DNA from: an uncultured bacterium
GTDB taxonomy: Bacteria > Spirochaetota > Spirochaetia > Treponematales > UBA12059
Reading direction: 5' to 3'
DNA length: 50,989 nucleotides
NCBI GenBank assembly: GCA_964293355.1
Contig: CAXZAJ010000002.1
Location: forward strand, 1-50,989
Shown here: positions 1,746-50,412 of the stretch, piece by piece
How the letters are laid out: every line of letters begins with the position of its first letter
Position numbering within the stretch: the stretch's first letter is position 1
Program-made: the position numbers and the translations under genes
Notes under the pieces: model-generated
What the model saw: only the letters and a program-made list of their open reading frames with translations
Told to the model about the DNA's origin: nothing
Databases searched by the model: none

Positions 1746-3554
1746 ATGCGCCTGACCACCCGACTCCTCATACTGATGTTCCTGAGCGTCATGGTACCAC
1801 TGGTCGGCATGTCGCTGTTCCTGAAACAGGAAATCAGCGAGAGCATACTCGTTGAAAAGCGCGACAAGCTGTTCGGGCTGGCCAGGCAACTCGACGGGGC
1901 CCTCGAGGGAACGTTTGACGATATCCTTGCGGTTGAAGGCGCTCTCGACGCCGATCGCGCCACGAAGGTAGCGGTGCTCAATTCCAGGTTGCGGGCTGTT
2001 ACCGATTTTGTGGCCTCGGGCAATGTCGGGGTCGGCGTCGGCTACTACGGCAGGGACCTGGATGCCGTGCTGACCTACGGTCCCAGCGAACAGTTCCAGT
2101 ACACGGTAGGCCAACCCATTTTCGAGGGGCACAAGGGCTATGAGGTCATGGCTTCGGGCGTGCCCATGGTCCAGACCGGCACCCTCGTACGGGGCGACAT
2201 TCTCAACTGCATGTGGCCCATACTGCGCAACGGAGAAACCATAGGCTACATATGGTCAAACGAGACGCTCGACATGATAGGCGGGCAGCTCGAACCCATC
2301 ATCCGCCGCGTCTACGTCATACAGGTACTTATCTTCTTTCTTATCTACCTGAGCCTGACGGTCACGATGAAGGGGCTGCTCGACAAGATAACATCGATCA
2401 AGAAGGGCATCGAGGTGCTGTTCAACATGCCCAACTACCACATTCCCCAGGTCTCCGGCGAACTGTCCGGCATCGTGAACACCATCAACGACCTCGTCGA
2501 TACGACCAATCTGGTCAAGTGTTACAACAAGAACATCCTTGAAGGTGTGATGAACGGTGTGCTGGCTCTGTCATGCTCGGGAACGGTGACACGGGCCAAC
2601 AAGGCATTCTTCGAACTGTTCCCTGAATTCGATGAAGGACTCATCGATTCCTCATACCGGTCCAGCTTCGGAGCCGCGATGATCGCCTTCCTCGAACGGG
2701 GCCTCGAAGGGCGGGAATCTGACATGGGGTCAGAGCTGGACCTCGGCGGTAAGATAATCGAAGCCCACGGCAACGCCATGTTCGACGAGACCGGCTCAAG
2801 GCTCGGTGCGGTGTTCGTGTTCAGGGACATTACGGTCATACGGCGTTACGAACGGGAAATCGAGGAGAAGGAACGTGCTGCCCTGCTTGGCGGGATGGCG
2901 CTGGCGGTGGTGCACGAGATAAAGAATCCCATGACCTCGGTCAAGGGCTTTACGCAGCTGCTGTCCAGACCCGGCGTGGATGAGGAAAAGCGCAGGCAGT
3001 ACATCGGCCTCATCAACGACGAGCTGAACAGGGTGAACCGGCTTCTCAACGAGATGCTCGTCTACGGTGGCAGGAGCCGGCTGGAACCGAGGCGCTGCGA
3101 TGTGGCGAACCTGGTGCATGACGCAGTAGCGCGCAACGACTGGACCATGTACGGCGTCAGGCCCGTCGTCAAGGCCGGTTCCGCGGGTGAGTATCTGGCC
3201 GAGGTCGATGCGTTCAAGGTGGGGCAGGTGCTGGACAATCTGCTCAAGAATGCCTGCGAGGCGGTGGCTGCGAAGGGAAGGGGACGGGTCGTTGCCATGG
3301 TCGAGCCCACAGCGGAGACGGTTTGTGTGCGCATGGCCGATTCAGGGATTGGCATAGCCGCCGACGTACTGCCAAAAATCGGCAACCCGCTATTCTCGAC
3401 GAAACAGGCTGGCACCGGCTTTGGAATAGCCATTTCCAGAAAAATAGTCGAGGCGCATGGTGGTAGCCTCACCGTTGATTCAAGGGAAGGGCAGTTCACC
3501 AGGGTTGATTTCTGCTTTCCACGGACGTGGATACCGGAAGGGGTTGAACTTTGA
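1746..3554 (+). CDS. Sensor histidine kinase (classical HisKA + HATPase_c, N-terminal sensor domain, PAS-like linker); AtoS-like by context
   Basis: 602-aa ORF starting at ATG 1746. H-box VVHEIKNPMTSVKGFTQLL, N-box DNLLKNACEA, G-boxes DSGIGI and GTGFGIAISRKIVEAHGG. It lies directly upstream of an NtrC-type regulator and overlaps its start. Confidence 0.85.
   Translation: MRLTTRLLILMFLSVMVPLVGMSLFLKQEISESILVEKRDKLFGLARQLDGALEGTFDDILAVEGALDADRATKVAVLNSRLRAVTDFVASGNVGVGVGYYGRDLDAVLTYGPSEQFQYTVGQPIFEGHKGYEVMASGVPMVQTGTLVRGDILNCMWPILRNGETIGYIWSNETLDMIGGQLEPIIRRVYVIQVLIFFLIYLSLTVTMKGLLDKITSIKKGIEVLFNMPNYHIPQVSGELSGIVNTINDLVDTTNLVKCYNKNILEGVMNGVLALSCSGTVTRANKAFFELFPEFDEGLIDSSYRSSFGAAMIAFLERGLEGRESDMGSELDLGGKIIEAHGNAMFDETGSRLGAVFVFRDITVIRRYEREIEEKERAALLGGMALAVVHEIKNPMTSVKGFTQLLSRPGVDEEKRRQYIGLINDELNRVNRLLNEMLVYGGRSRLEPRRCDVANLVHDAVARNDWTMYGVRPVVKAGSAGEYLAEVDAFKVGQVLDNLLKNACEAVAAKGRGRVVAMVEPTAETVCVRMADSGIGIAADVLPKIGNPLFSTKQAGTGFGIAISRKIVEAHGGSLTVDSREGQFTRVDFCFPRTWIPEGVEL
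2726..2737 (+). repeat. Abundant word, perfect copy GGGGTCAGAGCT
   Basis: Inside the second kinase gene; read as MGSEL. Confidence 0.95.
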
Positions 3555-4888
3555 CGAAGAAAATACTCGTCTGCGACGACGAGGCCAATGTGCGCGTGTT
3601 CCTGCACGACCTGCTGACACTGGAAGGCTTTGCCGTCGTGGAGGCTGAGAGCGGGCTTGCCGCCGTGGACTCCGTGAACAGGGACAAGCCCGATCTGTGC
3701 ATTCTGGACCTGATGCTGCCCGACTTCAACGGAGTCGAGTTGTTGCCGCGCCTCAAGGCCGCCAATCCCATGCTGGGGGTTATAGTCATAACCGCGCTCG
3801 GTACCGTGGACAACGCCGTGCTCTCCATGAAGGCCGGAGCCTATGATTTCATCACCAAGCCATTCGATGTGGATACCATACTGATATCCGTGAAGCGGGC
3901 CCTGGATTTTGTCGCGGTCAGCAAGGAGAATACGGCGTTGTGGAATCTCCACAAGAACCGGATGTACTTTGAGGATTTCATCGGGGAATGCCCCGCCGTG
4001 CAATCGATCAAGGCCCTGATACCCAAGCTGGCCTTTGCCGATGTGCCCATCCTGATAACCGGCGAGACCGGCACCGGCAAGAACGTACTGGCCAAGCAGA
4101 TACATTTTACGCTGGCCAAGGCCGAATCTCCCCTCGTGTACACAAACTGTTCGAGCATTCCGGCTACGCTGTTCGAGTCCGAGCTGTTCGGGCACGAGAA
4201 AGGCAGCTACACGGGTGCCATAGCGCAGAAGAAGGGCCGCGTGGAGCAAGCCCACGGCGGCACGCTGCTTCTGGACGAGATCACCGAGATTCCCTACGAG
4301 ATCCAGGCCAAGCTCCTCGATTTCCTGCAGGAACGTACCTTTTACCGTGTCGGAGGTGTGACGCCCATATCGGTTGAAACGCGTATCATAGCGCTTACGA
4401 ACAAGAATCTGCAGGAAGAAATAAAGGCAGGCAGGTTCAGGAAGGACCTGTACTACCGGCTGAATGTCATCCATTTCATCGTGCCGCCGCTCAGGGACAG
4501 AGCTGACGACATCAGGCTCATCTGCGAGTACCTCATCGAACTCCTGCGCAGGAAGTACAACAGCCCGACCCTCGGCATCTCCGGAGCGGCGATGGCCCTC
4601 ATACGGGCCTATGCATGGCCGGGCAATGTGCGTGAGCTCAAGAACGTGCTCGAGCGTGCCTTCATCTGCGCTGAAGGTGACGAAATTGGCCCCGAATCGC
4701 TGATCCTCGAGGAGCATGACCACGCGACGCTCAAGCAGGAACTCAAGGACCTGATGGGTGAGTTCGAGCGGGACGTCATCCTGCGCCGCCTGGCCTACTG
4801 GAAGGGCAACCGGACCTCGACCGCCCGGGACCTTGGCGTGTCCATCCGCAACCTCCAGTACAAGCTCGAGCGCTACGACATCCGTTGA
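3551..4888 (+). CDS. Sigma54-dependent response regulator (REC + AAA+ sigma54-interaction domain + Fis-type HTH); AtoC-like by context
   Basis: TTG start overlaps the kinase stop (TTGA). REC domain KILVCDDE...DLMLPDFNG. Walker A GETGTGKN. GAFTGA-type loop ESELFGHEKGSYTGA. PPLRDRADDI. C-terminal HTH TSTARDLGVSIRNLQYKL. Confidence 0.9.
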   Translation: MTKKILVCDDEANVRVFLHDLLTLEGFAVVEAESGLAAVDSVNRDKPDLCILDLMLPDFNGVELLPRLKAANPMLGVIVITALGTVDNAVLSMKAGAYDFITKPFDVDTILISVKRALDFVAVSKENTALWNLHKNRMYFEDFIGECPAVQSIKALIPKLAFADVPILITGETGTGKNVLAKQIHFTLAKAESPLVYTNCSSIPATLFESELFGHEKGSYTGAIAQKKGRVEQAHGGTLLLDEITEIPYEIQAKLLDFLQERTFYRVGGVTPISVETRIIALTNKNLQEEIKAGRFRKDLYYRLNVIHFIVPPLRDRADDIRLICEYLIELLRRKYNSPTLGISGAAMALIRAYAWPGNVRELKNVLERAFICAEGDEIGPESLILEEHDHATLKQELKDLMGEFERDVILRRLAYWKGNRTSTARDLGVSIRNLQYKLERYDIR

Positions 4889-4905: not shown

Positions 4906-4963
4906 GGGGTCAGAGCTGAGTAACTGCCGGATCTGAAGAACAGTCTGGTATGGGGACAGAGCT
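4906..4963 (+). repeat. Two direct copies of the abundant word (GGGGTCAGAGCT 4906-4917, GGGGACAGAGCT 4952-4963) in the intergenic region after the regulator gene
   Basis: Read directly. Both copies are followed by GA (GGGGWCAGAGCTGA). Confidence 0.95.
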
Positions 4964-9254: not shown

Positions 9255-10253
9255 ATGACCGGGCCCGAGCTACAACCGGAACCTACCGGCATGGTGCTGG
9301 AGATCCAGCGGATGAGCACCATGGACGGGCCCGGCCTCCGCACGACGCTGTTTCTCAAGGGCTGCTCGTTGCGGTGCAAGTGGTGCCACAATCCCGAGAG
9401 CATTGAACATGCGCCGCAGCCGCGGTGGACCCGGGCACGCTGCCTGGGTTGTGGCGCCTGCGTGAGCGTTTGCCCTGCTGGAGCTCTGACCCTGAGCCAG
9501 GAAGGCGTGGCCATAAACCGGTCGCTGTGTACTGCTTGCGGCGCCTGCGCCGCGGCGTGCCCGGCCACCGCCATGGAAATCTGGGGCAATCGCCGCCCCG
9601 TCAGCGAGGTTTTTGCCGAGCTCATCCGCGACGAGCCGTTCTTCGGCAATGACGGGGGCATCACGGTATCGGGCGGCGAGGCCTGCCTCCAGGCTCCGTT
9701 CGTGCGGGAACTGCTCGGGCGACTCCACAAGGCCGGCATCGGCACCGCTCTGGACACCTGCGGCGTCTGCACGCCTGCGCAGTTCGATGCTGCCTGCGAG
9801 TTTGCCGACCTGATACTGTACGACCTCAAGGATTCCGATCCGGTCCGCCACGAACGCAATGTCGGCGGCAGCCTGGCTCTCGTGCATGCAAATTTCAGGC
9901 GGGCCCTCGGCATGGTTGCCGGCGGGGTCAGAGCTCAGGCTGAAAAACATCCAGGAAAGCGCCTGTGGGTGCGCACTCCCATAATCCCTGGCATGACCGA
10001 TTCTCTAGACACGGTCCGGGGCATAGCGAAGTTCCTCGTGTCGGAGGCGATGGGCCGTGTGGAACGTTGGGAGCTCTGCGCCTTCAACAACCTGTGTTCA
10101 GGCAAGTACCGGAGCCTCGGCAGGAGCTGGGAACTGGAAGGTGCGCCGCTCGTGAGCGCCGCCGAGATGGGCGCTCTTGTCGGTGCGGCCGTGGCTGAAG
10201 GCTGGCCGGCCGACAGGATACACTGGACAGGAATGACCCGCCACGAATCCTGA
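9255..10253 (+). CDS. Glycyl-radical-enzyme activating protein (radical SAM with two extra ferredoxin-type 4Fe-4S motifs)
   Basis: CX3CX2C motif GCSLRCKWCHNPES. Ferredoxin motifs CLGCGACVSVCP and CTACGACAAACP. The ATG lies 2 nt after the thiolase stop. Confidence 0.85.
   Translation: MTGPELQPEPTGMVLEIQRMSTMDGPGLRTTLFLKGCSLRCKWCHNPESIEHAPQPRWTRARCLGCGACVSVCPAGALTLSQEGVAINRSLCTACGACAAACPATAMEIWGNRRPVSEVFAELIRDEPFFGNDGGITVSGGEACLQAPFVRELLGRLHKAGIGTALDTCGVCTPAQFDAACEFADLILYDLKDSDPVRHERNVGGSLALVHANFRRALGMVAGGVRAQAEKHPGKRLWVRTPIIPGMTDSLDTVRGIAKFLVSEAMGRVERWELCAFNNLCSGKYRSLGRSWELEGAPLVSAAEMGALVGAAVAEGWPADRIHWTGMTRHES
9924..9935 (+). repeat. Abundant word, perfect copy GGGGTCAGAGCT
   Basis: Inside the activase gene; read as GGVRAQ. 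Confidence 0.95.
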
Positions 10254-13354: not shown

Positions 13355-15556
13355 CTATCGGGTTATCGTCTTGTCGAAGGCTCCCGTGTCACGCACGAGG
13401 AGCCGCATGAGGCCGAACGCGGCCATCACCATCAGAATCAGGGTCGTCGCGAGCACGCTCGCCAGCCCGAATCGCAGGTTTTCAGAGAAATTGTAGATGA
13501 GCACCGTCATGTGGTACCAGCGCGCGGAGATCAGGAATATGACCGCGCTGACCGCCGTCATCGACCGCACGAAGGTGTAGGACATGCTGGAGATGAACGC
13601 GGGCCTGACCAGCGGCAGCACGATGCTCCTGAACACCATGCCCTCGTCAGCACCCAGGTCACGCGCTGCTTCTTCTATGGAAGGATCGATCTGTCTGAGC
13701 GATGCGACGCCGCCCTCTATGCCGACCGGCAGTTCGCGCACGATGTAGTTGATGACGATGATCGCGCCGGTGCCCACGAGGAGGAACGGTGCCTTGTTGA
13801 AGGCCAGGATGTATGCGATGCCGAGCAGGGTACCGGGCACCGCGAACGGCATCATCATCACCGCTTCCAGCACGCGCTTGCCCACGAAGGTCTTGCGCAC
13901 GAATATCATCGCGGAAGCCATGGCGATGAGGCCGGCTACCGGCGTGGCCATCGCGGCGAGCGAGAGCGTCGAGCGTATCGCGTCCTTGCCCCGCGAGAGA
14001 GCCTCTCCGATGTTTGACAGGGTAAAGCTGTAATCGATGCCCCAGTTCTTGACGAAGCAGCCCGCGACGATGGTGCCGTAGAGGGCTATGACGAAGGCGA
14101 CGATGGCCCAGACGCCAGCCGTCATGGCGACCCGGACGCCCGGTGAGGCTATCTCCACGAGCTTGAGGTTGGGCTTGCCGGTGACCGTGACGAAGGAACG
14201 CTTGGACACCCAGTTGCGCTGGATGAAGAAGGCCGTCAGCGTTGGTAAAAGCAGCAGCAGGGACAGAGCCGCGCCGCCGCCAAGATCGTTGCGGCCGGTC
14301 ACCTGTATGTATGCCTCCACCGACAGCACGCGGTAGTTGCCCGCGAGGAGCAGCGGGTTGGCAAAGTCCGCCAGCGAGTTGGTGAACACGAGGAGCCAGG
14401 CAGACAGTAGGCCCGGCACCGCCAACGGCAGCGTCACCGAGCGGAAGACCTGCCACCGGCCGGCGTTCAGATCAAGCGCCGCTTCCTCGAGCGTCGCGTC
14501 CAGCCCCTGCAGGACGCCTGCGAGCGTCAGGTACGCAATGGGGAACATGCCGATCGTCTGCACCAGGATGAGGCCGCCGAGGCCATATATGGAAAAGTTC
14601 TGGAGGCCGAGCAGCTGCTTGGTTATGAGGCCGTTGTTGCCCGCCAAGAGCAGTATAGACAGGGTCAGCGAGAAGGGAGGCGATATGACAGGCATCTGCG
14701 CCACAGCGGACAGGAATTTCTTGCCTCGCGCGCTGGTCCGGTGTATGACGAACGCGAACAGGAAGCCCACGATTGTGGATGTCGTGGCGGTCCAGATGCC
14801 CAGACGTATGGAACCCCAGAGCGACTGCAGGTGCGAGCCTGAAAGCGCGTCGATCCAGATGGCCAGGGACAGCTTGTCGTCCACCATGAACGACAGCCTG
14901 AAAGCCTCCGCGAGCGGGAATACGATGAAGACGATGGCAAGAGCCGCGAGTACCAGCACCGAATACCCGACTATGGAGTCGCGGGCAAATCGGGTTACGC
15001 CTGAAAGCGCGGCAAACAGCACGAAGGCTCCCAGTGCAAAGATTATCAATAGCCGTTCCAGCCCGGATCCGGCTGTTTCAGGAGCCATGAACACGGCGAT
15101 GCCGAGCAGTTCTCCCTGCGCTTCATCGGTAATCGGTGCGTAAAAGAGGCGCACCTCGGTATCAGCAAGCATCGCCTTGACCGGCGATGCGTAATTCTCG
15201 AAGTAATAGGCCGATTCAAGGCCTTTTTTTGCGTCTTCAGTGGATACAAGCTCGTTCCACAACTCGAGCACGGCATCGTCAGAGGTGAAGATCTCGTAGG
15301 AATCCGGGTCATCCATCGAGGGCACGAGGTAGACGGCAGCTCCGCCGGGCAGTGAATTTTCTACTGTTGCGAGCCAGTCGTCGCGGAGCGATGGATCTTC
15401 AGGCGCGCTTTTGGCGAGCAGGGCAAGCGCGTTCTGGCGGACTGCCGCGGCATTCGTCCGGATCGAGGTACGCAGGGTGGTGAAGACCCAGGCGTCCACT
15501 GCTGCGAACACGGCAAGAGCCAGAAGGAATTTGAACAGTTTATCCTTGGTGAACAC
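13355..15556 (-). CDS. Fused double-permease of an AfuB/FbpB/ThiP-type ABC importer, with an extra N-terminal extracytoplasmic domain of about 190 aa
   Basis: 733 aa, GTG start with GGAG. Two MetI-like TM modules. The N-terminus has a TM helix, a soluble region of about 150 aa, then another TM helix. Confidence 0.85.
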   Translation of the reverse strand: MFTKDKLFKFLLALAVFAAVDAWVFTTLRTSIRTNAAAVRQNALALLAKSAPEDPSLRDDWLATVENSLPGGAAVYLVPSMDDPDSYEIFTSDDAVLELWNELVSTEDAKKGLESAYYFENYASPVKAMLADTEVRLFYAPITDEAQGELLGIAVFMAPETAGSGLERLLIIFALGAFVLFAALSGVTRFARDSIVGYSVLVLAALAIVFIVFPLAEAFRLSFMVDDKLSLAIWIDALSGSHLQSLWGSIRLGIWTATTSTIVGFLFAFVIHRTSARGKKFLSAVAQMPVISPPFSLTLSILLLAGNNGLITKQLLGLQNFSIYGLGGLILVQTIGMFPIAYLTLAGVLQGLDATLEEAALDLNAGRWQVFRSVTLPLAVPGLLSAWLLVFTNSLADFANPLLLAGNYRVLSVEAYIQVTGRNDLGGGAALSLLLLLPTLTAFFIQRNWVSKRSFVTVTGKPNLKLVEIASPGVRVAMTAGVWAIVAFVIALYGTIVAGCFVKNWGIDYSFTLSNIGEALSRGKDAIRSTLSLAAMATPVAGLIAMASAMIFVRKTFVGKRVLEAVMMMPFAVPGTLLGIAYILAFNKAPFLLVGTGAIIVINYIVRELPVGIEGGVASLRQIDPSIEEAARDLGADEGMVFRSIVLPLVRPAFISSMSYTFVRSMTAVSAVIFLISARWYHMTVLIYNFSENLRFGLASVLATTLILMVMAAFGLMRLLVRDTGAFDKTITR

Positions 15557-38526: not shown

Positions 38527-39576
38527 ATGACTGCAATAACCGCAGACCGTCTCGGCAAGACGTTCTCCACCAAGGTCCGGAAATCCGGACGATTTTCAGC
38601 CGCACGTTCGCTGTTCAAACCCGAACTCCGCCAGGTTGAAGCCGTGAAGGGTGTTTCTTTCGAGGTCGAAGAGGGCGAGCTGGTCGCGTTCCTGGGGCCG
38701 AACGGCGCAGGCAAATCCACGACCATCAAGATGCTCATGGGCATACTCCAGCCTACCGAGGGCACGGCAAGCGTTCTCGGGCTCGACCCCGCGCGTGACC
38801 GTGTCGAGTTGTCACGCTATGTCGGTGCGGTTTTTGGCCAGAAGAGCCAGCTCTGGTTCCACCTGCCGCCAGCGGATTCATTCAGGCTCCTCGGTGCCAT
38901 TTACGAGATAGACGACGACGACCGGAAATGGCGTGAAGCTGAACTGGTGGAACGATTCGGACTTGCACCGTACATGGATGTTCCGGTACGCAAGCTGTCC
39001 CTTGGCGAGCGCATACGCTGCGAACTGGCTGCGAGCCTTTTGCCTTCACCGCTCGTCCTGTTCCTCGACGAGCCGACCATAGGCCTCGACATCATCGCCA
39101 AGCGCGAGATCCGCCAGCTCCTCGCCGAAGCCGCCAGGATTGACGACACGACCATCTTCTTGACGAGCCATGACATGGGTGACATAGAGAAGGTCTGCAA
39201 GCGGGCCATAATCATCCACCACGGCGAGGTCGTCATCGACGAGTCGATGAAGGCGCTCAAGCATCGAGCTCTGACCCTCAAGCACGTCGGCGTCCGCTAT
39301 GCCCGGCCTGTTGATCTTGATCTTCCAGCTCTGTCCCCGGTCAAGCGCACGGCCCTGGCTGCGAGCTATGAAGTGGACACGCGGAAGCATTCCCTGGCTG
39401 AAGTGGTGCGTGCGCTCGCCTCTCGTGGCGAGCTTGAAGACATAACGATAGAAGACGAACCGCTTGAAAATGTAATCGCGAGCATCTATGCGACCAAGAG
39501 CGGAATGGAAGCACAGGCATTTGGCACGCAGCGTGCGAAACTCCAGGCCGGTACGCCAGGAGCAATCCATGCGTAG
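38527..39576 (+). CDS. ABC transporter ATPase (uncharacterised ABC-2 system, COG4586-like)
   Basis: Walker A GPNGAGKST, signature LSLGERIR, Walker B LFLDEPT. C-terminal extension. Confidence 0.85.
   Translation: MTAITADRLGKTFSTKVRKSGRFSAARSLFKPELRQVEAVKGVSFEVEEGELVAFLGPNGAGKSTTIKMLMGILQPTEGTASVLGLDPARDRVELSRYVGAVFGQKSQLWFHLPPADSFRLLGAIYEIDDDDRKWREAELVERFGLAPYMDVPVRKLSLGERIRCELAASLLPSPLVLFLDEPTIGLDIIAKREIRQLLAEAARIDDTTIFLTSHDMGDIEKVCKRAIIIHHGEVVIDESMKALKHRALTLKHVGVRYARPVDLDLPALSPVKRTALAASYEVDTRKHSLAEVVRALASRGELEDITIEDEPLENVIASIYATKSGMEAQAFGTQRAKLQAGTPGAIHA
39327..39338 (-). repeat. Abundant word, perfect copy (AGCTCTGTCCCC on the + strand)
   Basis: Inside the ABC ATPase gene; read as PALSPV. 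A copy with A at the first G lies 60 nt upstream (39268-39277). Confidence 0.95.
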
Positions 39577-40411
39577 GTTGCGACCATCACTGCGGAAGTA
39601 TGTCGTGGCCGCATCGACAGCCATGAGCGAGCGGCTTGCCTACCCCGGCAATTTTGCCGGTTCCATGTTTACCTATGCGCTCTTCGTTTTCATTTTTTCC
39701 CGGGTCTGGGCAGGCGCGTACGCCGGGGCCACGGAAATCGCGGGCTATACGATGAGGATGGCTGTCTGGTACTTCATTATCGCAGAAATACCGAGCTTCG
39801 GTTTTGGGCGGTTCTTCTCCGCGCTGTCGCGGGACATGAAGAGCGGGCAGGTTGCCTACCTCCTCGGGAGGCCGTACGACTTCATAGGGTACAACCTGGC
39901 CGAGAAACTGGGCGGTTCGCTGATCGAGGCGGGTATCATCCTCGCCGAAGGCCTCGCGGTCGGGTTCGTCCTCGTCGGCCTGCCGCCCGCCGTAGCGGCC
40001 AGTAGCCCAACTGGTTCCGTGCCAGTAGTTCTGGAAGCGGCCCGGCTGGGATTCCTGGTCGTCTCGCTGCTCCTTGCAGGGGCGCTCAACTACTTCCTGC
40101 AGATGACCATCGCCATGACGGCGTTCTGGCTGGAGGAAAACGAGGCGTTTTACTGGATATTCCAGAAATTCGCGCTGGTTGTGGGAACGCTCATCCCGAT
40201 CGAGTTCCTGCCGGAACAGGCGGCCCGTCTGGCAGTCTGGACGCCGTTCCCGTATCTGTCCTATGCGCCAGCCCGGATCATGGTGGCTTTTTCATTGACT
40301 GAAGCTCTGACCCTCACGGCCAGGCAGGCACTCTGGGTGATCCTGGCCCTGTTGCTTTCCAAGGTCGTATTCGCCACCGGGAGCCGCAGGCTCTCGGTGA
40401 ATGGAGGCTGA
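39569..40411 (+). CDS. ABC-2 type permease (COG4587-like)
   Basis: I prefer ATG 39569 (AGGAG upstream, 8-nt overlap with the ATPase stop). About 6 TM helices. Confidence 0.75.
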   Translation: MRRLRPSLRKYVVAASTAMSERLAYPGNFAGSMFTYALFVFIFSRVWAGAYAGATEIAGYTMRMAVWYFIIAEIPSFGFGRFFSALSRDMKSGQVAYLLGRPYDFIGYNLAEKLGGSLIEAGIILAEGLAVGFVLVGLPPAVAASSPTGSVPVVLEAARLGFLVVSLLLAGALNYFLQMTIAMTAFWLEENEAFYWIFQKFALVVGTLIPIEFLPEQAARLAVWTPFPYLSYAPARIMVAFSLTEALTLTARQALWVILALLLSKVVFATGSRRLSVNGG

Positions 40412-40413
40412 TC

Positions 40414-41247
40414 GTGGAAAAGCGGAATTTGCTGACCGCAACTGCTCGCCCCCTCGGGCGCTTCAAGGCCTATGCACGGTTCATGGGTGCGGCATTCATT
40501 GTCAACGTTAAATCAACGCTCGAGTACCGCGTCAATTTCATGCTCCAGTTCTTTGGAATGATGCTCAACAACGCGGCGTTCGCGGCCTTCTGGATGGTGC
40601 TGCTGAACCGGGTTAATTCTGTCGGTGGCTACGGATTCTCCGACGTGATGCTGGTGTGGGCGCTCGTGTCGAGCTCGTTCGGACTCGCGCACATCGTATT
40701 CGGCAACATCAGGCAATTGGGCCGCATCATCATGGAAGGCGGCCTCGACGTCTATCTGCTGCAGCCCAAGGATGTATGGCTCAACGTCGTGTCGTCCAGG
40801 ACCATCGTCTCGGCCTGGGGCGATTTTGTTTACGGGTATATCGTGCTCGCGATGATGACGGGGACAGAGCTCGAGCAGTTCGCGCTCTTTTCGGCCCTCG
40901 TCATCCCAGGCGCCCTGATTTTTGCCGCCACCTTTGCCGCCGCGGACAGCCTCGCGTTTTTCATCGGCAACTCGTCGGCGGTATCGTCCGCGCTGACCGA
41001 GTTCATGCTGTCATTTTCGCTGTACCCCGAGGGAGTCTACGGTGCCGGGTTCCGTTGGATGCTGTACACCATCGTGCCTTCGGGCTTCGTGGCGTTCATG
41101 CCCTTGCGCGTGTACAAGGCGCTGGACTGGTGGTTTGTCCCGATCCTGTACCTTATTGCGGGGGTGTATGTCCTCCTCTCGTACCGGTTCTTCAACCTCG
41201 GACTAAAGCGGTATGAATCGGGGAACAGGATGGACGCGCGGGTTTAG
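40414..41247 (+). CDS. ABC-2 type permease (COG3694-like)
   Basis: GTG start with GGAGG 6 nt upstream. About 6 TM helices. Third gene of the operon. Confidence 0.75.
   Translation: MEKRNLLTATARPLGRFKAYARFMGAAFIVNVKSTLEYRVNFMLQFFGMMLNNAAFAAFWMVLLNRVNSVGGYGFSDVMLVWALVSSSFGLAHIVFGNIRQLGRIIMEGGLDVYLLQPKDVWLNVVSSRTIVSAWGDFVYGYIVLAMMTGTELEQFALFSALVIPGALIFAATFAAADSLAFFIGNSSAVSSALTEFMLSFSLYPEGVYGAGFRWMLYTIVPSGFVAFMPLRVYKALDWWFVPILYLIAGVYVLLSYRFFNLGLKRYESGNRMDARV
40860..40871 (+). repeat. Abundant word, perfect copy GGGGACAGAGCT
   Basis: Inside the second permease gene; read as TGTELE. Confidence 0.95.
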
Positions 41248-41288: not shown

Positions 41289-41300
41289 AGCTCTGACCCC
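41289..41300 (-). repeat. Abundant word, perfect copy (AGCTCTGACCCC on the + strand)
   Basis: Intergenic, 24 nt upstream of the MFS start codon. Confidence 0.95.
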
Positions 41301-42914: not shown

Positions 42915-43024
42915 GGTGCATCCTTTCAGATTTTGTCGCCGTTACAGAAGTCGGCCCTGGAATTGTACGACACTACAATAGTCTGGCTCTGTCCCTCTGG
43001 CAAGCTCGTCTGCTCCTATGTTGG

Positions 43025-45547
43025 TCATGCTTTGATTTTCGGGCGCAGCCCCTTGGTGGGCTCGGCGACGAGGGGATCCAGTGGCCAGTAATGCCTGGGG
43101 TAGCGCCTGGCCAGCTCGGCCCTGATCTCCGGGTACGTGGTGTTCCAGAAACTCGCCAGGTCGCTTGTAACTTGCAAGGGCCTGTCAGCCGGCGAAAGCA
43201 GCTCCAGCGTCATTGGCTTGCCGCAAGCCATGGGACTTCTTGCCATGCCGAAAAATTCCTGGATTCGGGCGGCCAGTCTGGCCGGGCCGCTTGACGGGTA
43301 TGCAGGCCTTCTTCGCCGTCCGCCTGGGGTCGTTACGAAAGCAGGAGCCGCCTTGTCGATGGCTGTTACCACTTCGCGGCCCAGTATTGACTTCAGGAGA
43401 GCTTCGAGGTTTCCTGCGTCGATGACGGGGCCTGTGGGCGACAACCAGTCAGCTGAAGCGGCAGCTATCGATTCCAGAAGAGCAGAATCGGTCAGGGTTT
43501 CTGCTTCTACCCTGGCGCCTGGGGTCAGAGCTCTGTCCCCCGAGTCAGTTCGCGTGGAGAAGTATCTGGCCCGATCGACAAGCGAGCGAGCGTCCTCGCT
43601 CCAGGATAGCCAGTCCAGGCCTTCGGCTCGTAGTCTGGATGTGAATGCTGCGACGAGCAGGTCTGGCGGTACCCTGTCCAGCCGCCGTTCGCCGAGCGTT
43701 ATCACACCGGCCTTGGTTCTCACCCAGGCCGCCGCTGAAAGACCCCGCCACTCCACCTCGAGTACCGACACCGCTCCAGGGAGCAACGCGGCTCTGGCTG
43801 CGGGAACATTAACCGGCGCACCGCTTCGAATGCGGCCGAGCGGATCTCCCGCGTCCACATCCACGGCCAGTAGCCATTCGGCCCTCGGCGACGCGTAGCT
43901 GGCCTTGGCCCGCCGCCCGGAACTGAACTCCCAGTTGCCGTCGGGTAGCCGCCTTGCCAGCCTGTCCGGAAAACCAGGCGCCATGACATCGCCGATTGCC
44001 GCAATGCCTGAAGCGGCGGCCGCCGGGTTGAAGGTGCGCTGGCTGCGATGGTCCAGCCCGGATCCAGTGACCCTGGAAACCAGGCGATCCGCTTCTTTCA
44101 GTATGCGGCTGGATCGCGGGTCTCCGTACGCAGCCCGGGCGGTGCCAGCCAGCAGGCGTTCCAGGCCTGCGATGAAGTCACCATCCGCTTCGGGTGCTTC
44201 GCGCTCGGTCATGGCGGGTGCCGCGCCGGCGGCGGCATGGAGGTTCTTCTGCTCTGTCCCCGCGGCGAGCAGGGCTGCCGCCGAGCGTGGATCCGCACCC
44301 AGTGCCGCCGCGCGCCTTCCGGTTTCCATTGCCAGACCAGCGGAGTCGACGAGTCCTATGTTCCTCAGGACCGTAACCGCGGCGTCCCATGCATGGCGTG
44401 GCGGTGGATCCAACCAGCGTACCGATTCCAGGGTTGTATTACCACGGATGGCGCATTCAAGCACCACGCCAGACAGTTCTATCCGTTCGAGCTCTGTCCC
44501 CCGTGATGGCGCGAGCAGGTCAGCTTCGTTCCAGCAGCGGAGGCAGAGTCCCGGTCCCAGGCGGCCGGCCCGTCCCCGGCGCTGGTCTGCTTCGGCGACA
44601 GATACCCGCTCGGTGACGAGCCTGTTGAGTCCGCTCGGCGCATGGAACCGGACGAAGCGCGAAACGCCGGAATCGACGACAGCGCCGATCCTGGGTACCG
44701 TCAGGCTGGTCTCTGCTACGCTGGTGGCAAGTATGACACGGCGATGTGCGCCGGGCGGTGGTGCCAGTACCGATTTCTGCTCCATGAGGGACAGCGAGCC
44801 GTGGAGCGGCAGGATTCCAATTCCTGAAGGAAGGGAACCGAGCATGGCGGAAACTGCACCTATTTCGCGCAGGCCCGGCAGAAAGGCCAGCACATCGCCA
44901 TCGCTCGATCCAAGGGCTTCGAGTATGGCAGCTGTGACTGATTCTTCGAGGTATGCACCATTCCGGGGCGGCCGGTACGCGGTGGTGATGGGGTAAAGGC
45001 GGCCGGGTGCGTGTATCGCGGGGCAACCAAGATAGGTCGAGACCGAGGTGGAGTCCATGGTCGCGGACATGGCGAGTATCGAGAGCCCCTCCCGCGCCTC
45101 GCGCGCTTCCACGGCGAAGGCAAGGCCGAGCTCGCATGCCGCGGAGCGTTCGTGAAACTCGTCGAAAACCACGAGTGAAACGCCTGTCAGGAAGGGATCT
45201 TCCTGCACCATGCGGATGAAAACCGCCTCGGTGATGAATTCTACGAACGTGTCGCGGCCTGCCTTGGTATCGCCGCGGACGCGGTATCCGACAGCCCTGC
45301 CGAGCTCTGACCCCAGTAGTTCTGAAACCCTGGAAGCAGCGGAAATGGCGGCAATCCTTCTGGGCTCCAGGACAAGCGCTTTTTTCGCGGACGCTTTACT
45401 GGCGAATGCGTTCGTTTCGACGAGGTATGCAGGCACGGTGCTCGTCTTGCCTGCGCCGGTCTCGGCTGACAGGACGAGCGAGCCATTCGTGAGTGCGCGG
45501 GCGATATCGGGGAGTAGCGGGAAAATCGGCAGGTCGTCGAGGTGCAT
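43025..45547 (-). CDS. hrpB: ATP-dependent RNA helicase HrpB (DEAH box)
   Basis: 840 aa. SAETGAGKTS, DEFHERS, SATM, QRRGRAGR. The C-terminal LELLSPADRPLQVTSDLASFW...RYPRHYWP is collinear with E. coli HrpB. Confidence 0.9.
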   Translation of the reverse strand: MHLDDLPIFPLLPDIARALTNGSLVLSAETGAGKTSTVPAYLVETNAFASKASAKKALVLEPRRIAAISAASRVSELLGSELGRAVGYRVRGDTKAGRDTFVEFITEAVFIRMVQEDPFLTGVSLVVFDEFHERSAACELGLAFAVEAREAREGLSILAMSATMDSTSVSTYLGCPAIHAPGRLYPITTAYRPPRNGAYLEESVTAAILEALGSSDGDVLAFLPGLREIGAVSAMLGSLPSGIGILPLHGSLSLMEQKSVLAPPPGAHRRVILATSVAETSLTVPRIGAVVDSGVSRFVRFHAPSGLNRLVTERVSVAEADQRRGRAGRLGPGLCLRCWNEADLLAPSRGTELERIELSGVVLECAIRGNTTLESVRWLDPPPRHAWDAAVTVLRNIGLVDSAGLAMETGRRAAALGADPRSAAALLAAGTEQKNLHAAAGAAPAMTEREAPEADGDFIAGLERLLAGTARAAYGDPRSSRILKEADRLVSRVTGSGLDHRSQRTFNPAAAASGIAAIGDVMAPGFPDRLARRLPDGNWEFSSGRRAKASYASPRAEWLLAVDVDAGDPLGRIRSGAPVNVPAARAALLPGAVSVLEVEWRGLSAAAWVRTKAGVITLGERRLDRVPPDLLVAAFTSRLRAEGLDWLSWSEDARSLVDRARYFSTRTDSGDRALTPGARVEAETLTDSALLESIAAASADWLSPTGPVIDAGNLEALLKSILGREVVTAIDKAAPAFVTTPGGRRRRPAYPSSGPARLAARIQEFFGMARSPMACGKPMTLELLSPADRPLQVTSDLASFWNTTYPEIRAELARRYPRHYWPLDPLVAEPTKGLRPKIKA
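43521..43540. repeat. Head-to-head pair of the abundant word forming the 20-bp quasi-palindrome GGGGTCAGAGCTCTGTCCCC, inside hrpB
   Basis: Read directly. The two copies overlap by 2 nt around the SacI-like core GAGCTC. Read on the - strand it encodes SGDRALTPGA. Confidence 0.95.
44251..44261 (-). repeat. Abundant word, perfect 11-mer (GCTCTGTCCCC on the + strand)
   Basis: Inside hrpB; read as AGTEQ. Confidence 0.95.
44490..44501 (-). repeat. Abundant word, perfect copy (AGCTCTGTCCCC on the + strand)
   Basis: Inside hrpB; read as RGTELE. Confidence 0.95.
45303..45314 (-). repeat. Abundant word, perfect copy (AGCTCTGACCCC on the + strand)
   Basis: Inside hrpB; read as LGSELG. Confidence 0.95.
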
Positions 45548-45638: not shown

Positions 45639-46376
45639 GTGGACAACGAGCAGGTATACGAGAGCGGATCTTCCATGGTAGCGGAATCTCCCGGGATAGG
45701 CCTATACGCGGAGCGCGGCCTTCATGCAGCGCTCAAGGCCGTCTACGCGACCCGCCCCGGCGCGCGGCTTGAGGTGCGGGTGGCCGGCAAAGTCGTCGAT
45801 GTGGTGCTGCCGGACGAGTTTGTCGAGGTACAGACCCGGAACATTGGAGCCATTTCCGACAAGATCCTGCACCTCGCCTGCATCAAACCTGTCCGTATCG
45901 TGCATCCCATAGTTATCGAGACTATTATAGAACGCATCGATCCGGGCGACCACTCGCTGGCTTCTACGCGCAAGGCGAAGACCCGTCGCGATTTCTACAG
46001 CATTTTCGACGAGCTCGTGCACGCGCCTCTTGTCATAGCCTCGCCGAATGTCCGCTTCGATGTGGTGCTCGTGCGGGTGCGGGAACTGCGGGTGCGCGAT
46101 GGCTCCGGGTCATGGCGCAAACGGGGCGATCGTGTCTTGTCGCGGGATCTCGCCGGCATCGTCGCTACGACCAGCCTCGACACCAGGGCGGACTGGCTCG
46201 CGCTGATTCCAGCCACGCTCGCGCCTCCCTACGAATCTGCTGCCTTGGGATCCGCACTCGGTATTTCCGTGCCACGGGCACGCAAGGTGCTGTACTCCTT
46301 TGCCCGCGCGGGGCTGTTGCGCGAGGCAGGCAAAACGGGCAACCGAAAGCTGTATGCGGGGTCAGAGCTGACGTGA
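45639..46376 (+). CDS. Hypothetical protein: N-terminal PD-(D/E)xK-nuclease-like pattern plus a C-terminal winged-helix-like segment (inferred)
   Basis: VVDVVLPDEFVEVQTRN resembles a D...E-x-K/Q nuclease core. SAALGSALGISVPRARKVLYSFARAGLLRE resembles a wHTH. The start is uncertain (GTG 45639 or ATG 45675). Confidence 0.55.
   Translation: MDNEQVYESGSSMVAESPGIGLYAERGLHAALKAVYATRPGARLEVRVAGKVVDVVLPDEFVEVQTRNIGAISDKILHLACIKPVRIVHPIVIETIIERIDPGDHSLASTRKAKTRRDFYSIFDELVHAPLVIASPNVRFDVVLVRVRELRVRDGSGSWRKRGDRVLSRDLAGIVATTSLDTRADWLALIPATLAPPYESAALGSALGISVPRARKVLYSFARAGLLREAGKTGNRKLYAGSELT
46358..46369 (+). repeat. Abundant word, perfect copy GGGGTCAGAGCT
   Basis: Last codons of the nuclease-like gene; read as AGSELT*. 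Confidence 0.95.
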
Positions 46377-47623: not shown

Positions 47624-48760
47624 TCAGCGAGCCGAATCCAGCCATTCGTCCAGCTTGTGGAGCGCCTCGGGCATGTTGGCCCTGCCAAAGCCTATCCTGA
47701 AGTACGATTGTTCGTAGTCGTAGAAGGCCCCCGGCAGGAGCAGCACGCCGGACTCGGCCACCAGCCGCTCGGCGAGCGCTCCGGCGTCCGAACCGTCAGT
47801 CAGGTGCGGAAAGGCTATCGATCCACCCGCAGGAGGAGTCCACTGCGCAAAATCAGGCCTGCGGCGGAAGAAGCCATCGAGCAGAACCAGGTTCCCGGCG
47901 ACGAGAACCCGGTTCCGAGCCGCTATCGTTTCCAGGTTCCTGATGGCAATTTCGGCGAGGACCTCGCTCGGCGCCGAGGAACATATCGAGTTGTAGTCCT
48001 TGACGACCGCGACGGCATCGAGGATATCGTGCCGCCGCGATGCCAGCCAGCCTATGCGGAGCCCTGCCAGGCCCGAGTGCTTGCTGAGCACGTCGAGCGC
48101 TACGCCGTTCTCGTATGCCTCGCACACCGAGGGCAGCCTGGCGCTCTGGTCGCGCTCAAGTCGGCGGTACACCTCGTCCACCAGCAGCAACGCGCCAATC
48201 TTGCGGGCATAGGCGACGATAGCATCAAACTCGGCCCTGGTGGGCAAGGCTCCAGTGGGGTTGTGCGGCGCGTTGAGCACTATAATTCGAGCTCTGTCCC
48301 CGCAGAGACCCGGCAGGTCGTCAGGATCGAGGAACCAGCGGGGCTGCCCGTCTTGGCCGGTCGTTTCGCGCAGCTTCCAGGGCACCACTTCGCAACCGAG
48401 CGAGCGGGGTATCTCGGCCAGCGACTGGTAGCAGGGGTAATTGACGACGACACGGTCTCCGGTCTTCAGCGTGGCTAGGTACAGGTTGAGTATCGCCTCC
48501 TCGGCTCCCGAGTGCACGAACACCGATTCGGTGCCGAGCCCGGAATACTGTGCCGCGATCGCGGCGCGGAGCGGCGGGGCACCGCGAGTCTCGGTATAGC
48601 CCAGCCGCATATCCAGTAGCTTATCCAGCGAGCCATCTTCCATGGCCAGCAGGTCCCTGATCGGCATCGACTCGCAGTCCGAAGAGCAGAGCAGGAATCT
48701 GGCGCTGAATTCATGCTTGGCAAAGAAGCGCTCGAGCGCGAATGGCTGGAAGAATCCCAT
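47624..48760 (-). CDS. Class I/II pyridoxal-phosphate aminotransferase
   Basis: I prefer ATG 48760 (MGFFQPFALERFF). NAPHNPTG, SKHSGLAGLRIGW (PLP Lys). Its stop codon abuts the stop of the convergent amidohydrolase gene. Confidence 0.8.
   Translation of the reverse strand: MGFFQPFALERFFAKHEFSARFLLCSSDCESMPIRDLLAMEDGSLDKLLDMRLGYTETRGAPPLRAAIAAQYSGLGTESVFVHSGAEEAILNLYLATLKTGDRVVVNYPCYQSLAEIPRSLGCEVVPWKLRETTGQDGQPRWFLDPDDLPGLCGDRARIIVLNAPHNPTGALPTRAEFDAIVAYARKIGALLLVDEVYRRLERDQSARLPSVCEAYENGVALDVLSKHSGLAGLRIGWLASRRHDILDAVAVVKDYNSICSSAPSEVLAEIAIRNLETIAARNRVLVAGNLVLLDGFFRRRPDFAQWTPPAGGSIAFPHLTDGSDAGALAERLVAESGVLLLPGAFYDYEQSYFRIGFGRANMPEALHKLDEWLDSAR
48290..48301 (-). repeat. Abundant word, perfect copy (AGCTCTGTCCCC on the + strand)
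   Basis: Inside the aminotransferase gene; read as CGDRAR. Confidence 0.95.
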
Positions 48761-49564: not shown

Positions 49565-50412
49565 TACGCGTCGACAACCTCCGCTTTTCCTATCCTCGTT
49601 CAAAAAGCGAGGCCGTCCGGGGCATTTCGTTTTCTGTAGCACCCGGAGAAGTCTTCGGCTTTCTTGGCCCGAGCGGTGCCGGCAAGAGCACCACGCAGAA
49701 GATCCTCCTCGGGTCGTTGCGGGGCTATTCAGGGGCAGCATCGGTGGCTGGCGTCGAGGCCTCCAGGGCTAACGGCTCGTACCGCGCCGGGCTTGGAGCC
49801 GCGTTCGAGTTTCCGTGCTTCTACCAGAAGCTGACAGGTCTGGAAAACCTGCTGTTGTTCGCGTCGTTCTACGATGGCCCCCAGGACAATCCGCGCGAAC
49901 TCCTGAATCGCCTTGGCTTGGCCGAGGCTGCTGACAGGCGGGTGGGCGAGTATTCAAAAGGCATGAAAATGCGCCTGAATCTGGCGCGCGCTGTCATTCA
50001 CCGGCCGCGCGCCCTGTTTCTGGACGAACCTACGAGCGGGCTTGATCCTGCCAATGCGCGCATCGTCCGCGACATCGTCAGGGAGCGCGCGGCAGACGGC
50101 GTCGCGGTGTTCCTGACCACACACGACATGGCAGCCGCTGATGCCGCCTGCGACCGCGTCGCGTTCCTGGTCGACGGGAGCATTGCCGCCTGCGACTCGC
50201 CCTGCGCGCTGAAACGGCGCTACGGCAAGAGGGCTGTCGTCGTCGACAGAACCAACGGGGTCAGAGCTCAGAAAGAATTCCCCCTGGACGGCCTGGCCGA
50301 CAATGCCAGCTTTCTGGATGAGTTGCGGAAGCCCGGGCTACTGGGCATACGTACCCTCGATGCCAGTCTGGACGGCATTTTCCTGCAGCTGACCGGAAAG
50401 GAGCTGGCATGA
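49561..50412 (+). CDS. ABC-2 type exporter ATPase
   Basis: The ATG overlaps the TetR stop (ATGA). Walker A GPSGAGKST, signature YSKGMKMRL, Walker B LFLDEPT. Confidence 0.85.
   Translation: MIRVDNLRFSYPRSKSEAVRGISFSVAPGEVFGFLGPSGAGKSTTQKILLGSLRGYSGAASVAGVEASRANGSYRAGLGAAFEFPCFYQKLTGLENLLLFASFYDGPQDNPRELLNRLGLAEAADRRVGEYSKGMKMRLNLARAVIHRPRALFLDEPTSGLDPANARIVRDIVRERAADGVAVFLTTHDMAAADAACDRVAFLVDGSIAACDSPCALKRRYGKRAVVVDRTNGVRAQKEFPLDGLADNASFLDELRKPGLLGIRTLDASLDGIFLQLTGKELA
50257..50268 (+). repeat. Abundant word, perfect copy GGGGTCAGAGCT
   Basis: Inside the ABC ATPase gene; read as NGVRAQ. Confidence 0.95.

Follow-up and report, generated by a model that had tools for sequence, protein, structure and literature searches.

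The short DNA word RGGGWCAGAGC(T) is probably the cognate sequence of a single-copy, vertically inherited and domesticated REP-associated tyrosine transposase (RAYT), an HUH/Y1 transposase of single-stranded DNA; the evidence does not point to DNA uptake and most likely points to such a RAYT recognition sequence. The analysed window, 50,989 nucleotides long, is one whole contig of an uncultured spirochaete. Exact GGGGWCAGAGC occurs 27 times in the whole window, 14 times on the plus and 13 times on the minus strand, against an average of 0.12, and never more than 2, in dinucleotide-preserving shuffles of the window. The shorter GGGWCAGAGC occurs 39 times against 0.40 expected, copies with at most one mismatch number 44 against 2.6, and the window's 61 CAGAGC hexamers include 39 that follow GGGW. 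These counts bear out the first-pass annotation, which had called the word hyper-abundant far above chance. Its 12 copies with A as the first base and its four single-mismatch copies (18468, 22035, 29064 and 30064) were all found, as was the T that it placed after 24 of the 27 perfect copies, and its coordinates were correct save for one copy listed at 30668, a base off the true 30669. An additional single-mismatch copy, absent from its list, lies at 42052 (GGGGTCAGTGC). The common extension of the word includes the palindromes GAGCTC and TCGA.

According to hand-curated gene calls, 31 of the 39 word copies in the window (~80%) are genic, on either strand of genes, and 8 are intergenic; intergenic DNA makes up 6.5% of the window, so that intergenic copies are enriched about 3-fold. 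Specifically, the spelling GGGGTCAGAGC lies in sense orientation in the genes for a histidine kinase (2726..2736, +, G-S-E-L), a Fer4/radical-SAM protein (9924..9934, +, G-V-R-A), an ABC-F protein (29161..29171, +, G-V-R-A), HrpB (45304..45314, -, G-S-E-L) and an ABC ATPase (50257..50267, +, G-V-R-A), antisense in the PmbA gene (31735..31745, +), in the 5' part of an amidohydrolase-domain ORF (46358..46368, +; putative gene start), and in intergenic DNA upstream of an MFS transporter gene (41290..41300, -). The spelling GGGGACAGAGC is read in sense as G-D-R-A at the 5' end of an RluD-like gene (19592..19602, -), where it adjoins a (CCTCGAACT)x4 repeat, and in the MatE (20337..20347, -; common to L005), PmbA (32158..32168, -) and aminotransferase (48291..48301, -) genes, as G-T-E-L in the ABC-2 membrane protein (40860..40870, +) and HrpB (44491..44501, -) genes, and in sense once more in HrpB (44251..44261, -). 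It lies antisense over L-C-P in the SbcB (21503..21513, +), ABC-F (30669..30679, -) and Fur genes (23463..23473, -, at the CxxC motif), over S-S-V-P in the TrkA gene (34416..34426, -), and in an ABC ATPase gene (39328..39338, -), 60 bp from an antisense copy of AGGGTCAGAGC (39268..39278, -). The latter spelling is also antisense in the Fer4/radical-SAM (9483..9493, -, A-L-T-L), APH-family (27017..27027, +) and ABC-2 membrane protein (40304..40314, -) genes, and sense in SbcB (21838..21848, -, R-V-R-A). The spelling AGGGACAGAGC is read in sense as R-D-R-A in the NtrC-family (4493..4503, +), ABC-F (30490..30500, +) and TldD (33714..33724, -) genes, lies antisense over A-L-S-L in an ABC permease gene (14259..14269, +), and occurs in the tentatively annotated MFS-HrpB spacer (42986..42996, -). 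An intergenic direct doublet consists of GGGGTCAGAGC (4906..4916, +) and, 46 bp after it, GGGGACAGAGC (4952..4962, +); a direct triplet begins with GGGGTCAGAGC over the final codons of the asparaginase gene (17829..17839, +) and continues in the asparaginase-TruA spacer with AGGGACAGAGC (17874..17884, +) and GGGGACAGAGC (17931..17941, +). Two overlapping copies of opposite orientation (GGGGTCAGAGCTCTGTCCCC, 43521..43540, both strands) occupy the HrpB gene. Frame use is uneven, with 14 of the 31 genic words read as G-[DV]-R-A, and the earlier statement that all frames are used holds for five of the six in the window, the missing sense G-Q-S frame being found in relatives. A tally over 15 loci gives 100 sense and 103 antisense copies, which argues that the signal acts on DNA and not on RNA.

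The gene at 28035..28562 (+) encodes a RAYT of 175 aa and is flanked by the genes for an APH-family kinase and an ABC-F protein. The protein contains the HUH motif NHYHLMI and a catalytic Tyr within FEYIDENPV, and matches Pfam PF01797 (Y1_Tnp) and NCBIfam NF047646 (REP-associated tyrosine transposase; 82.6 bits, cutoff 80). Its sole PDB sequence match is 4ER8, E. coli TnpA-REP, and Foldseek ranks 4er8_A best, followed by the ISDra2, IS200 and IS608 transposases. Members of this RAYT family occur widely across Spirochaetota. The gene had escaped notice in the first-pass annotation. Its leader (27917..28034, +) comprises two direct word copies on the gene's strand, GGGGACAGAGC at 27917 and AGGGACAGAGC at 27952, which precede the ATG by 73-118 bp, and then a conserved segment (GAAAGCGCCAGTGCGCGGC...GTAGCAGAGGGC) that leads to the ATG. 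The word is thus tied physically, and as described below also phylogenetically, to the RAYT gene, which contradicts the earlier claim that it belongs to no known repeat class; of the ideas offered at that stage, a high-copy protein-binding site comes nearest to the present result.

The association extends well beyond the window. The canonical word lies within 200 nt upstream of the gene, in sense orientation, at 60 of 77 metagenome RAYT loci, where local word density predicts about 6, and the word or a one-base dialect (CAGTGC, CAGGGC) is found directly upstream on the gene's strand at 75 of these 77 independent loci. Loci retrieved via RAYT homologues all carry the word upstream, and in L020 and L012, retrieved solely by the 15-mer GGGGACAGAGCTCGA, a RAYT homologue adjoins the word. 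Additionally, word density is 0.74 words/kb (366 kb) near RAYTs with the canonical word only, versus 0.11 words/kb (61 kb) near those with the CAGTGC dialect only. At L162-L164 and L186, words flank the RAYT and none occurs in the surrounding 7-10 kb, so RAYT possession is not sufficient for dispersed words.

In clade A (the window, L125-L129, L137 and L138), the APH and ABC-F genes enclose the RAYT, and words occur at 0.76-0.97 per kb. The gene is single-copy and keeps an identical syntenic position in L125-L129, with synteny held over about 10-24% protein divergence. In the sister clade B (L135/L005, L136 and probably L002), the APH gene of L135 and L136 lies directly beside the ABC-F gene and the RAYT is missing from the syntenic site; L135, L136 and L002 have zero words in 57.7 kb, and the 21.5 kb of L005 retain 4 relic words, whose positions are orthologous to those of window copies. 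Clade B therefore totals 4 words in about 79 kb, versus about 0.8/kb in RAYT-bearing relatives. This co-absence of RAYT and word represents one phylogenetic event and is confounded by a GC rise from 54-60% to 65-67%; a clade B RAYT could lie elsewhere in the genome, about 100 kb of clade B genomes being covered.

Within RAYT-bearing lineages the words are strongly conserved. In the region that the window shares with L129, each of the window's 13 genic words has a word at its counterpart site, whereas only 13.5% of ordinary 11-mers are conserved; the region shows 82% nucleotide identity and 61% third-position identity, and the 9 identical copies alone give P of about 6e-6. The first-pass annotation had proposed that the word was accommodated by substitution, not insertion, and had suggested comparing orthologous codons in related species lacking the word. 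This comparison agrees with the proposal: orthologous genes are gap-free across word sites, and the words differ from relatives by point substitutions. The word at 14259 shows a single synonymous difference from L005 (GCC to GCT), and the distant locus L020 also carries the word at the equivalent ABC permease site; the word at 21503 likewise differs from clade B by one synonymous change (TGC to TGT). L005 keeps a relic word triplet at the equivalent place of the asparaginase-TruA junction. Relatives also vary in the word's A form, which is found at the 21838 site in L128 and L129 (read as R-D-R-A), at the 27017 site in L128, L129, L137 and L138, and at the 29161 site in L129, L137 and L138.

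It is unlikely that the RAYT merely targets the word without maintaining it, an IS200-like element having been fixed next to an already abundant word. IS200/IS605 elements do integrate on the 3' side of a short, specific target, and the chromosomal place of the RAYT varies by lineage, always just downstream of the word. However, this account fits poorly with the decay of words that coincides with RAYT absence and with a single-copy gene syntenic across such divergence. Furthermore, CAGTGC-flanked RAYTs keep their own dialect copies although the dispersed dialect numbers 0 in the 61 kb around them, so the copies beside the gene move together with it and do not stem from the target.

Improbable to a similar degree is a competence receptor that favours word-bearing DNA, with repeated transformation driving the word into genes by substitution. 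The earlier comparison with uptake sequences stands as regards density (~1 word per 1.3 kb on both strands), and the substitutional copies in various frames, their conservation at orthologous sites and the one-base dialects between lineages are likewise properties of Neisseria DUS and Pasteurellaceae USS. Uptake nevertheless leaves unexplained the sense-oriented word in nearly all RAYT leaders, the density that tracks the RAYT dialect, and the joint absence of words and RAYT. The window holds only one inverted pair, so DUS-style terminator pairing is not seen; no competence gene was found in it, which weighs little at 51 kb, and a literature search gave no reported uptake sequence for spirochaetes.

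A HIP1-like site of another global DNA-binding or modifying protein, such as an orphan methyltransferase or a nucleoid protein, that the RAYT leader merely contains is very unlikely. Clade-wide distribution, genic occurrence and substitutional origin resemble cyanobacterial HIP1, and the extension palindromes would suit such a protein, but the word itself is non-palindromic, the window encodes no methyltransferase, and such a site would account neither for the specific placing of several copies, in a set orientation, in RAYT leaders nor for the match of dialects. Dispersed copies were compared with random positions for a complementary arm or excess folding energy, and neither was found; conservation ends at ~14 nt and the word is not a piece of some longer MITE or IS, both as first described. 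Spread by insertion is largely refuted by these alignments and by the hairpin-free dispersed copies. A classical mobile REP/REPIN or MITE, or a polar Chi-/KOPS-type word, is thus highly improbable despite the arrays and doublets, the intergenic enrichment and an orientation shift near 30.5 kb of the window (permutation p = 0.013), since copies are 20 plus and 19 minus overall under a cumulative GC skew that rises almost throughout the window, and orientation, in line with the non-polar reading given earlier, shows no correlation with GC skew across 35 loci (rho = 0.02).

For the RAYT recognition sequence, we propose that the word corresponds to the outer end of the RAYT's own upstream leader. 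In two lineages this end remains a REP-like hairpin, in which GGGG is followed by the arm ACAGAGCTCGAT, a loop and the arm's complement. At the RAYT of L133, L134 and L163 the hairpin is perfect, GGGG-ACAGAGCTCGAT-N8-ATCGAGCTCTGT, and that of L132 combines the CAGTGC dialect with a compensating change in the opposite arm; a perfect partner arm accompanies 2 of 83 RAYT-proximal copies, both from one lineage, L132 being outside this set. Copies dispersed in the genome retain the GGGG tag and 5' arm only. They form by point substitution, mostly synonymous, at codons that nearly spell the word already (G-D-R-A, G-T-E-L, A-L-S-L, L-C-P, S-S-V-P), on either strand, and are kept unchanged at orthologous positions in RAYT-bearing lineages. 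The RAYT would bind the single-stranded word and probably nick and rejoin it, and the word would then persist through a benefit to the host or because the RAYT biases allele survival.

Against this reading, characterised RAYT substrates are, to our knowledge, extragenic hairpins without exception, whereas the dispersed copies here lack a hairpin, and we know of no Y1-transposase chemistry that makes copies via point substitution. The present word is unlike any described RAYT repeat in being short, non-palindromic, substituted into genes and conserved there. Its kinship is with the REP-RAYT system, and its behaviour is that of an uptake sequence or of HIP1.

The window holds 27 copies of the 11-mer GGGGWCAGAGC (14 on the + strand and 13 on the - strand), whereas dinucleotide-preserving shuffles give an expectation of 0.12, so that the excess reported in the first-pass annotation is real and chance or base composition is ruled out as its source. 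The 10-mer GGGWCAGAGC occurs 39 times against 0.40 expected, and copies with at most one mismatch number 44 against 2.6. The motif is sharp: 12 of the 17 one-mismatch copies are the variant with A in the first place, the T described as following the perfect word is present in 24 of 27 copies, and GGGW precedes 39 of the 61 CAGAGC hexamers. One listed position, 30668, was wrong by one base (correct, 30669) and a single-mismatch copy at 42052 had been omitted from the near-perfect list, while the rest of the list stands. An assembly or adaptor artefact is also ruled out, since dozens of independent assemblies, produced by different projects, contain the word, the reading frames are intact and orthologous copies are conserved. 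The gene content of the window, an entire contig of 50,989 bp, is that of an ordinary chromosome, including histidine kinases, an NtrC-family regulator, a CoA-transferase/thiolase cluster, ABC transporters, asparaginase, TruA, RluD, MatE, SbcB (nearest homologues 80–88% identical, from uncultured Spirochaetota), Fur/FeoA, a DEAD-box helicase, ABC-F, PmbA/TldD, TrkAH and HrpB.

The 15-mer GGGGACAGAGCTCGA was scanned in one genome per species, and at least 118 blocks of 8 kb matched. Among those listed, at least 38 by hand count belong to Spirochaetota (Treponema, Treponematales, Rectinemataceae, Spirochaetales and Spirochaetaceae; GC 38–71%), and the non-Spirochaetota blocks mostly have one match apiece. 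The 10-mer reaches 8–18 copies per 8 kb in several spirochaete blocks. The word is a feature of spirochaetes and not an oddity of one genome. In the literature, we found no description of the word itself or of uptake sequences in spirochaetes, nor of RAYT-linked words in spirochaetes or substitution-type intragenic RAYT repeats.

The gene at 28035–28562 (+) encodes a 175-aa Y1/HUH protein that matches Pfam PF01797 and the NCBIfam model NF047646 for REP-associated tyrosine transposases (82.6 bits, cutoff 80), while the IS200 model scores 23.9 bits, below its cutoff of 55. Its sole sequence match in the PDB is 4ER8, the E. coli TnpA-REP, with the HUH and YxxxNPV motifs aligned, and the AlphaFold model (pLDDT only 73) has 4er8_A as its top Foldseek match, followed by the ISDra2, IS200 and IS608 transposases. 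The protein combines HUH and a single Tyr in a Y1 fold nearer to TnpA-REP than to IS200 TnpA. A homologue search gave 719 matches, of which the named ones are Spirochaetota, and most protein clusters comprise one contig. Specifically, among related RAYT-bearing loci, an APH-family gene precedes the RAYT in L125, L127, L128 and L129, and an ABC-F gene follows it in L125, L126, L127 and L129; in L128 the downstream neighbor is an uncharacterised gene on the opposite strand, and ABC-F was not seen. This synteny across L125–L129, judged from sampled contigs, gives the RAYT the look of a domesticated and vertically inherited gene. Unlike this pattern of single contigs, locus L132 (positions 1–10543, ENA contig ctg82104l) holds four RAYT paralogues, which are interleaved with RHS toxin cassettes, each with a hairpin of the CAGTGC dialect directly upstream. 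This arrangement suggests that the family is still mobile in L132, or is involved there in the shuffling of RHS cassettes.

The window RAYT has word copies 27917 and 27952 immediately 5' of it, on its own strand. Likewise, loci L020 and L012, which were retrieved solely through the 15-mer, carry a 55%-identical RAYT homologue with the word 38–110 bp upstream. A scan of metagenomes with the RAYT alignment provided 80 loci, 77 of them with enough upstream sequence for testing. In 60 of the 77, the canonical word stands on the sense strand no more than 200 nt before the ATG, where local density would predict about 6 such loci, and counting the one-base dialects CAGTGC and CAGGGC raises the number to 75. 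The RAYT gene is therefore flanked by a highly over-represented genomic sequence. The upstream copies often form 2–5 direct repeats spaced by 20–50 bp, and a leader of about 55 nt from word to ATG recurs, with the motif GCAAGCA or TCAATCA followed by GCGTAT. In the window, a segment GAAAGCGCCAGTGCGCGGC...GTAGCAGAGGGCATGAGA at 27975–28034 is conserved before the RAYT start codon and occupies the same position in L125–L129, and in more distant homologues the GCGTAT motif stands about 13 nt before the ATG; this segment may serve as a promoter, as an RBS element or as a binding site. A GAACTCC heptamer precedes word copies in many of the upstream arrays (e.g. L131, L183, L185 and L206). In L133, L134 and L163, the proximal word is the GGGG tag followed by the 5' arm of a perfectly paired hairpin (ACAGAGCTCGAT-N8-ATCGAGCTCTGT), and the CAGTGC-dialect hairpin of L132 has a compensating change in the 3' arm. 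A REP-like hairpin as a general RAYT feature, as suggested by L133 and L132, was dropped because the systematic check found a perfect partner arm at only 2 of 83 RAYT-proximal copies.

Most copies lie elsewhere, inside genes. Of the 39 copies in the window, 31 lie in genes and 8 in the intergenic DNA, which makes up 6.5% of the sequence; most of these 8 belong to direct doublets or to a triplet (4906/4952, 17829/17874/17931 and 27917/27952). The 15 other loci analysed hold 249 copies, of which 203 fall in long ORFs and use all six frames, 100 in sense and 103 in antisense. These near-equal numbers rule out an RNA-level signal and indicate that the signal acts on DNA. The dispersed copies have neither a complementary arm nor excess folding energy relative to random positions, in keeping with the first-pass view that they are not fragments of a longer repeat. 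The proposal that the word arose by substitution and not by insertion also held up, as orthologous genes align without gaps across the word sites and differ by point substitutions. Compared with clade B, a sister clade lacking the RAYT at the syntenic slot, the words show 1–5 point differences, located where the encoded peptide is already compatible with the word (L-C-P, A-L-S-L and G-D-R-A), and several of these differences are purely synonymous.

The words are retained at orthologous codons far above background. Of the genic window words, 13 fall in the region shared with L129, and every one of them is a word there too, 9 identical and 4 differing at W only, whereas the background is 82% nucleotide identity (61% at third positions) with 13.5% of ordinary 11-mers conserved (P ~6e-6 for the 9 identical copies alone). 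Loci L137 and L138 follow the same pattern. At the four W-position differences from L129, and at a fifth from L138, the window lineage has T where the relatives have A; every A/T difference at these five sites is nonsynonymous (D to V or S to T), and the remaining ten word positions show zero changes. T variants are also present in other lineages, e.g. L210 and L142. An outgroup that polarises loss versus gain at the orthologous sites was available at one informative site, a permease site shared with the distant L020.

Several local arrangements of the word were observed besides. No tandem repeat in the window includes it, and the sole neighboring one is a 9-bp repeat, (CCTCGAACT)x4.1 at 19559–19595, directly beside copy 19592, where the RluD-like gene starts. 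Inside the HrpB gene, at 43521–43540, two overlapping copies in opposite orientation make up a 20-nt near-palindrome, GGGGTCAGAGCTCTGTCCCC; no other inverted pair occurs in the window. In other spirochaete MAGs, tandem arrays with a period of 21–39 bp carry the word in their unit: L013 3396–3572, which codes for a proline-rich linker, SSSSVPVPA, of a protein that is possibly TonB-like; L079 3290–3440, which encodes an acidic PE-rich repeat; L086 1020–1360, with 13 copies in about 300 bp that look non-coding; L097 6366–6493; and L031 3741–3838 and 7187–7346. Additionally, an Acidobacteriota MAG (L047, 502–600) has four GGGGACAGAGC copies in a symmetric inverted structure within 100 bp, a possible case of transfer or of an unrelated palindromic element.

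Word density covaries with the enzyme and its dialect. RAYT flanks with the canonical word only contain 270 words in 366 kb (0.74/kb, against a chance level of about 0.008/kb), while flanks with CAGTGC only have the canonical word at 0.11/kb and none of the dialect word. Loci L162–L164 and L186 have a RAYT, yet their word density is not high, and RAYT presence is thus insufficient for high density. Concatenated protein identities of 0.90 (window–L129) and 0.865 (L135–L136) within groups, against 0.82–0.86 between them, define two sister clades. Clade A (the window, L125–L129, L137 and L138; GC 54–60%) carries the RAYT and has 0.76–0.97 words/kb in the window, L128 and L129. In clade B (L135/L005, L136 and probably L002; GC 65–67%), the APH-family and ABC-F genes of L135 and L136 are adjacent with no RAYT between them, and no RAYT homologue was found in any clade B DNA examined (L135/L005, L136 and L002). 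The word is absent from 21.9 kb of L135, 14.3 kb of L136 and 21.5 kb of L002, and the 21.5 kb of L005 retain 4 relic words, all at positions where the orthologous window sequence has a copy. The word-poor clade is 5–12 percentage points GC-richer at orthologous loci (65–67% versus 54–60%). This loss contrast is a single event and is confounded with the GC shift.

A Chi- or KOPS-type word would show strand polarity following replication, and none was observed: the window has 20 copies on the + and 19 on the - strand, as the balanced orientation noted at first reading implied, while cumulative GC skew rises almost throughout, and orientation bias did not correlate with GC skew across 35 loci. 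The order of orientations along the contig is nonetheless non-random, with 15 + and 5 - among the first 20 copies and 5 + and 14 - among the last 19. The change falls near 30491 (~30.5 kb; CUSUM permutation p = 0.013). GC skew does not switch at this point, and orientation is not related to gene strand in any simple way.

RAYTs and their repeats have been known for more than 10 years, and bacteria keep them over millions of years. We suppose that the RAYT would bind, and probably nick, the word in single-stranded form, and that the words would be retained by host selection or by an enzyme-dependent bias. To our knowledge, no Y1 chemistry yields point substitutions, which counts against a RAYT-based reading, as do the RAYT-bearing loci of low word density and the GC-confounded, single-event loss contrast. 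Tentatively, and somewhat short of calling it probable, we propose that a domesticated HUH transposase and its 11–12 nt single-strand word constitute a host-maintained, genome-wide signalling system, comparable in role to Chi or uptake sequences, which is written by substitution about once per kb and kept at orthologous codons by selection or enzyme-dependent bias. Such a signalling system would imply a retention strong enough to force parallel nonsynonymous changes at the dialect shift (A to T, D to V). That the word covaries with the enzyme and is conserved at orthologous codons far more than the background speaks for a role of the sites as such. It suggests an enzyme that acts on thousands of sites in the chromosome, or is needed for them, rather than one that merely copies a parasite. 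If the signalling proposal is true, the system would be the first case of a RAYT 'repeat' that serves as a conserved chromosomal signal instead of multiplying as an element, and it would offer a direct handle on the benefit of RAYTs to their hosts.

The closest comparison is with the REP/REPIN–RAYT systems of Gammaproteobacteria (E. coli TnpA-REP, 4ER8; Pseudomonas REPINs), which likewise have an HUH/Y1 enzyme; in the contigs sampled, the spirochaete RAYT also looks single-copy and vertically inherited as theirs is, apart from L132. The features that tie REPs to RAYTs recur here, namely a gene flanked by its cognate repeat, genome-wide over-representation, dialects that covary with the enzyme, and near absence of the repeat from DNA without the enzyme. 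The 5' foot of the hairpin also bears a tag of 4 nt, which is GGGG in the spirochaetes and GTAG in REPs. However, the repeat lacks every defining REP feature: it is not extragenic; it is not palindromic, the hairpin being confined to the RAYT gene of two lineages; and, as far as aligned sequences indicate, its spread would not have been insertional, adding no length. Unlike REPs, which are palindromes of 20–40 nt or inverted doublets, the dispersed copies are linear words of 11–12 nt, about 80% of them intragenic and made by point substitution without length change, and they are conserved at orthologous codons where REPs turn over. The RAYT-proximal words are direct repeats on one side, whereas REPs are inverted and lie on both sides. 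The case thus breaks the definition of a RAYT repeat, in that the cognate sequence is intragenic, non-palindromic and non-insertional, yet covaries with the enzyme. Described intragenic REPs are insertions that add amino acids (PMC3733652), and RAYT surveys rely on extragenic flanking 16-mers (PMC5581495). Because the 11–12-mer lies mostly inside genes, it would escape standard surveys of REPs and RAYTs based on such 16-mers or on hairpins, which are blind to systems of this kind.

In its behaviour, the word resembles instead the DUS of Neisseriaceae, the USS of Pasteurellaceae or cyanobacterial HIP1. Like DUS and USS, typically words of 9–12 nt at about one per kb, it occurs at that length and density on both strands with genes included, is conserved in core genes, has lineage dialects, and is intragenic by substitution with biased peptide frames. 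Unlike them, it is tied to a transposase-family gene and not to a pilin or competence receptor, and it shows no terminator-type inverted pairing. We found no positive evidence for an uptake role, and no competence genes in the 51-kb window; we know of no natural competence in these spirochaetes. HIP1 (GCGATCGC) is likewise a clade-wide word propagated by substitution inside genes, with a function that is still unsettled. Its 8 nt form a palindrome, with a link to orphan methyltransferases (PMC4390886), whereas the spirochaete word is an asymmetric 11–12-mer linked to an HUH enzyme, in which only the sub-word GAGCTC is palindromic.

The IS200/IS605 transposases (IS608 and ISDra2) share the enzyme fold, and the leader of L133 and L132 resembles an IS200/IS605 left end, with a hairpin just upstream of tnpA and a short specific sequence outside. 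Unlike those elements, the RAYT looks single-copy and syntenic in the contigs sampled, has no recognisable right end, and has not multiplied in most lineages, L132 with its four copies beside RHS cassettes being the exception. The spirochaete word stands beside DUS, USS and HIP1 among the genome words propagated by substitution, to which it adds a single small candidate enzyme.
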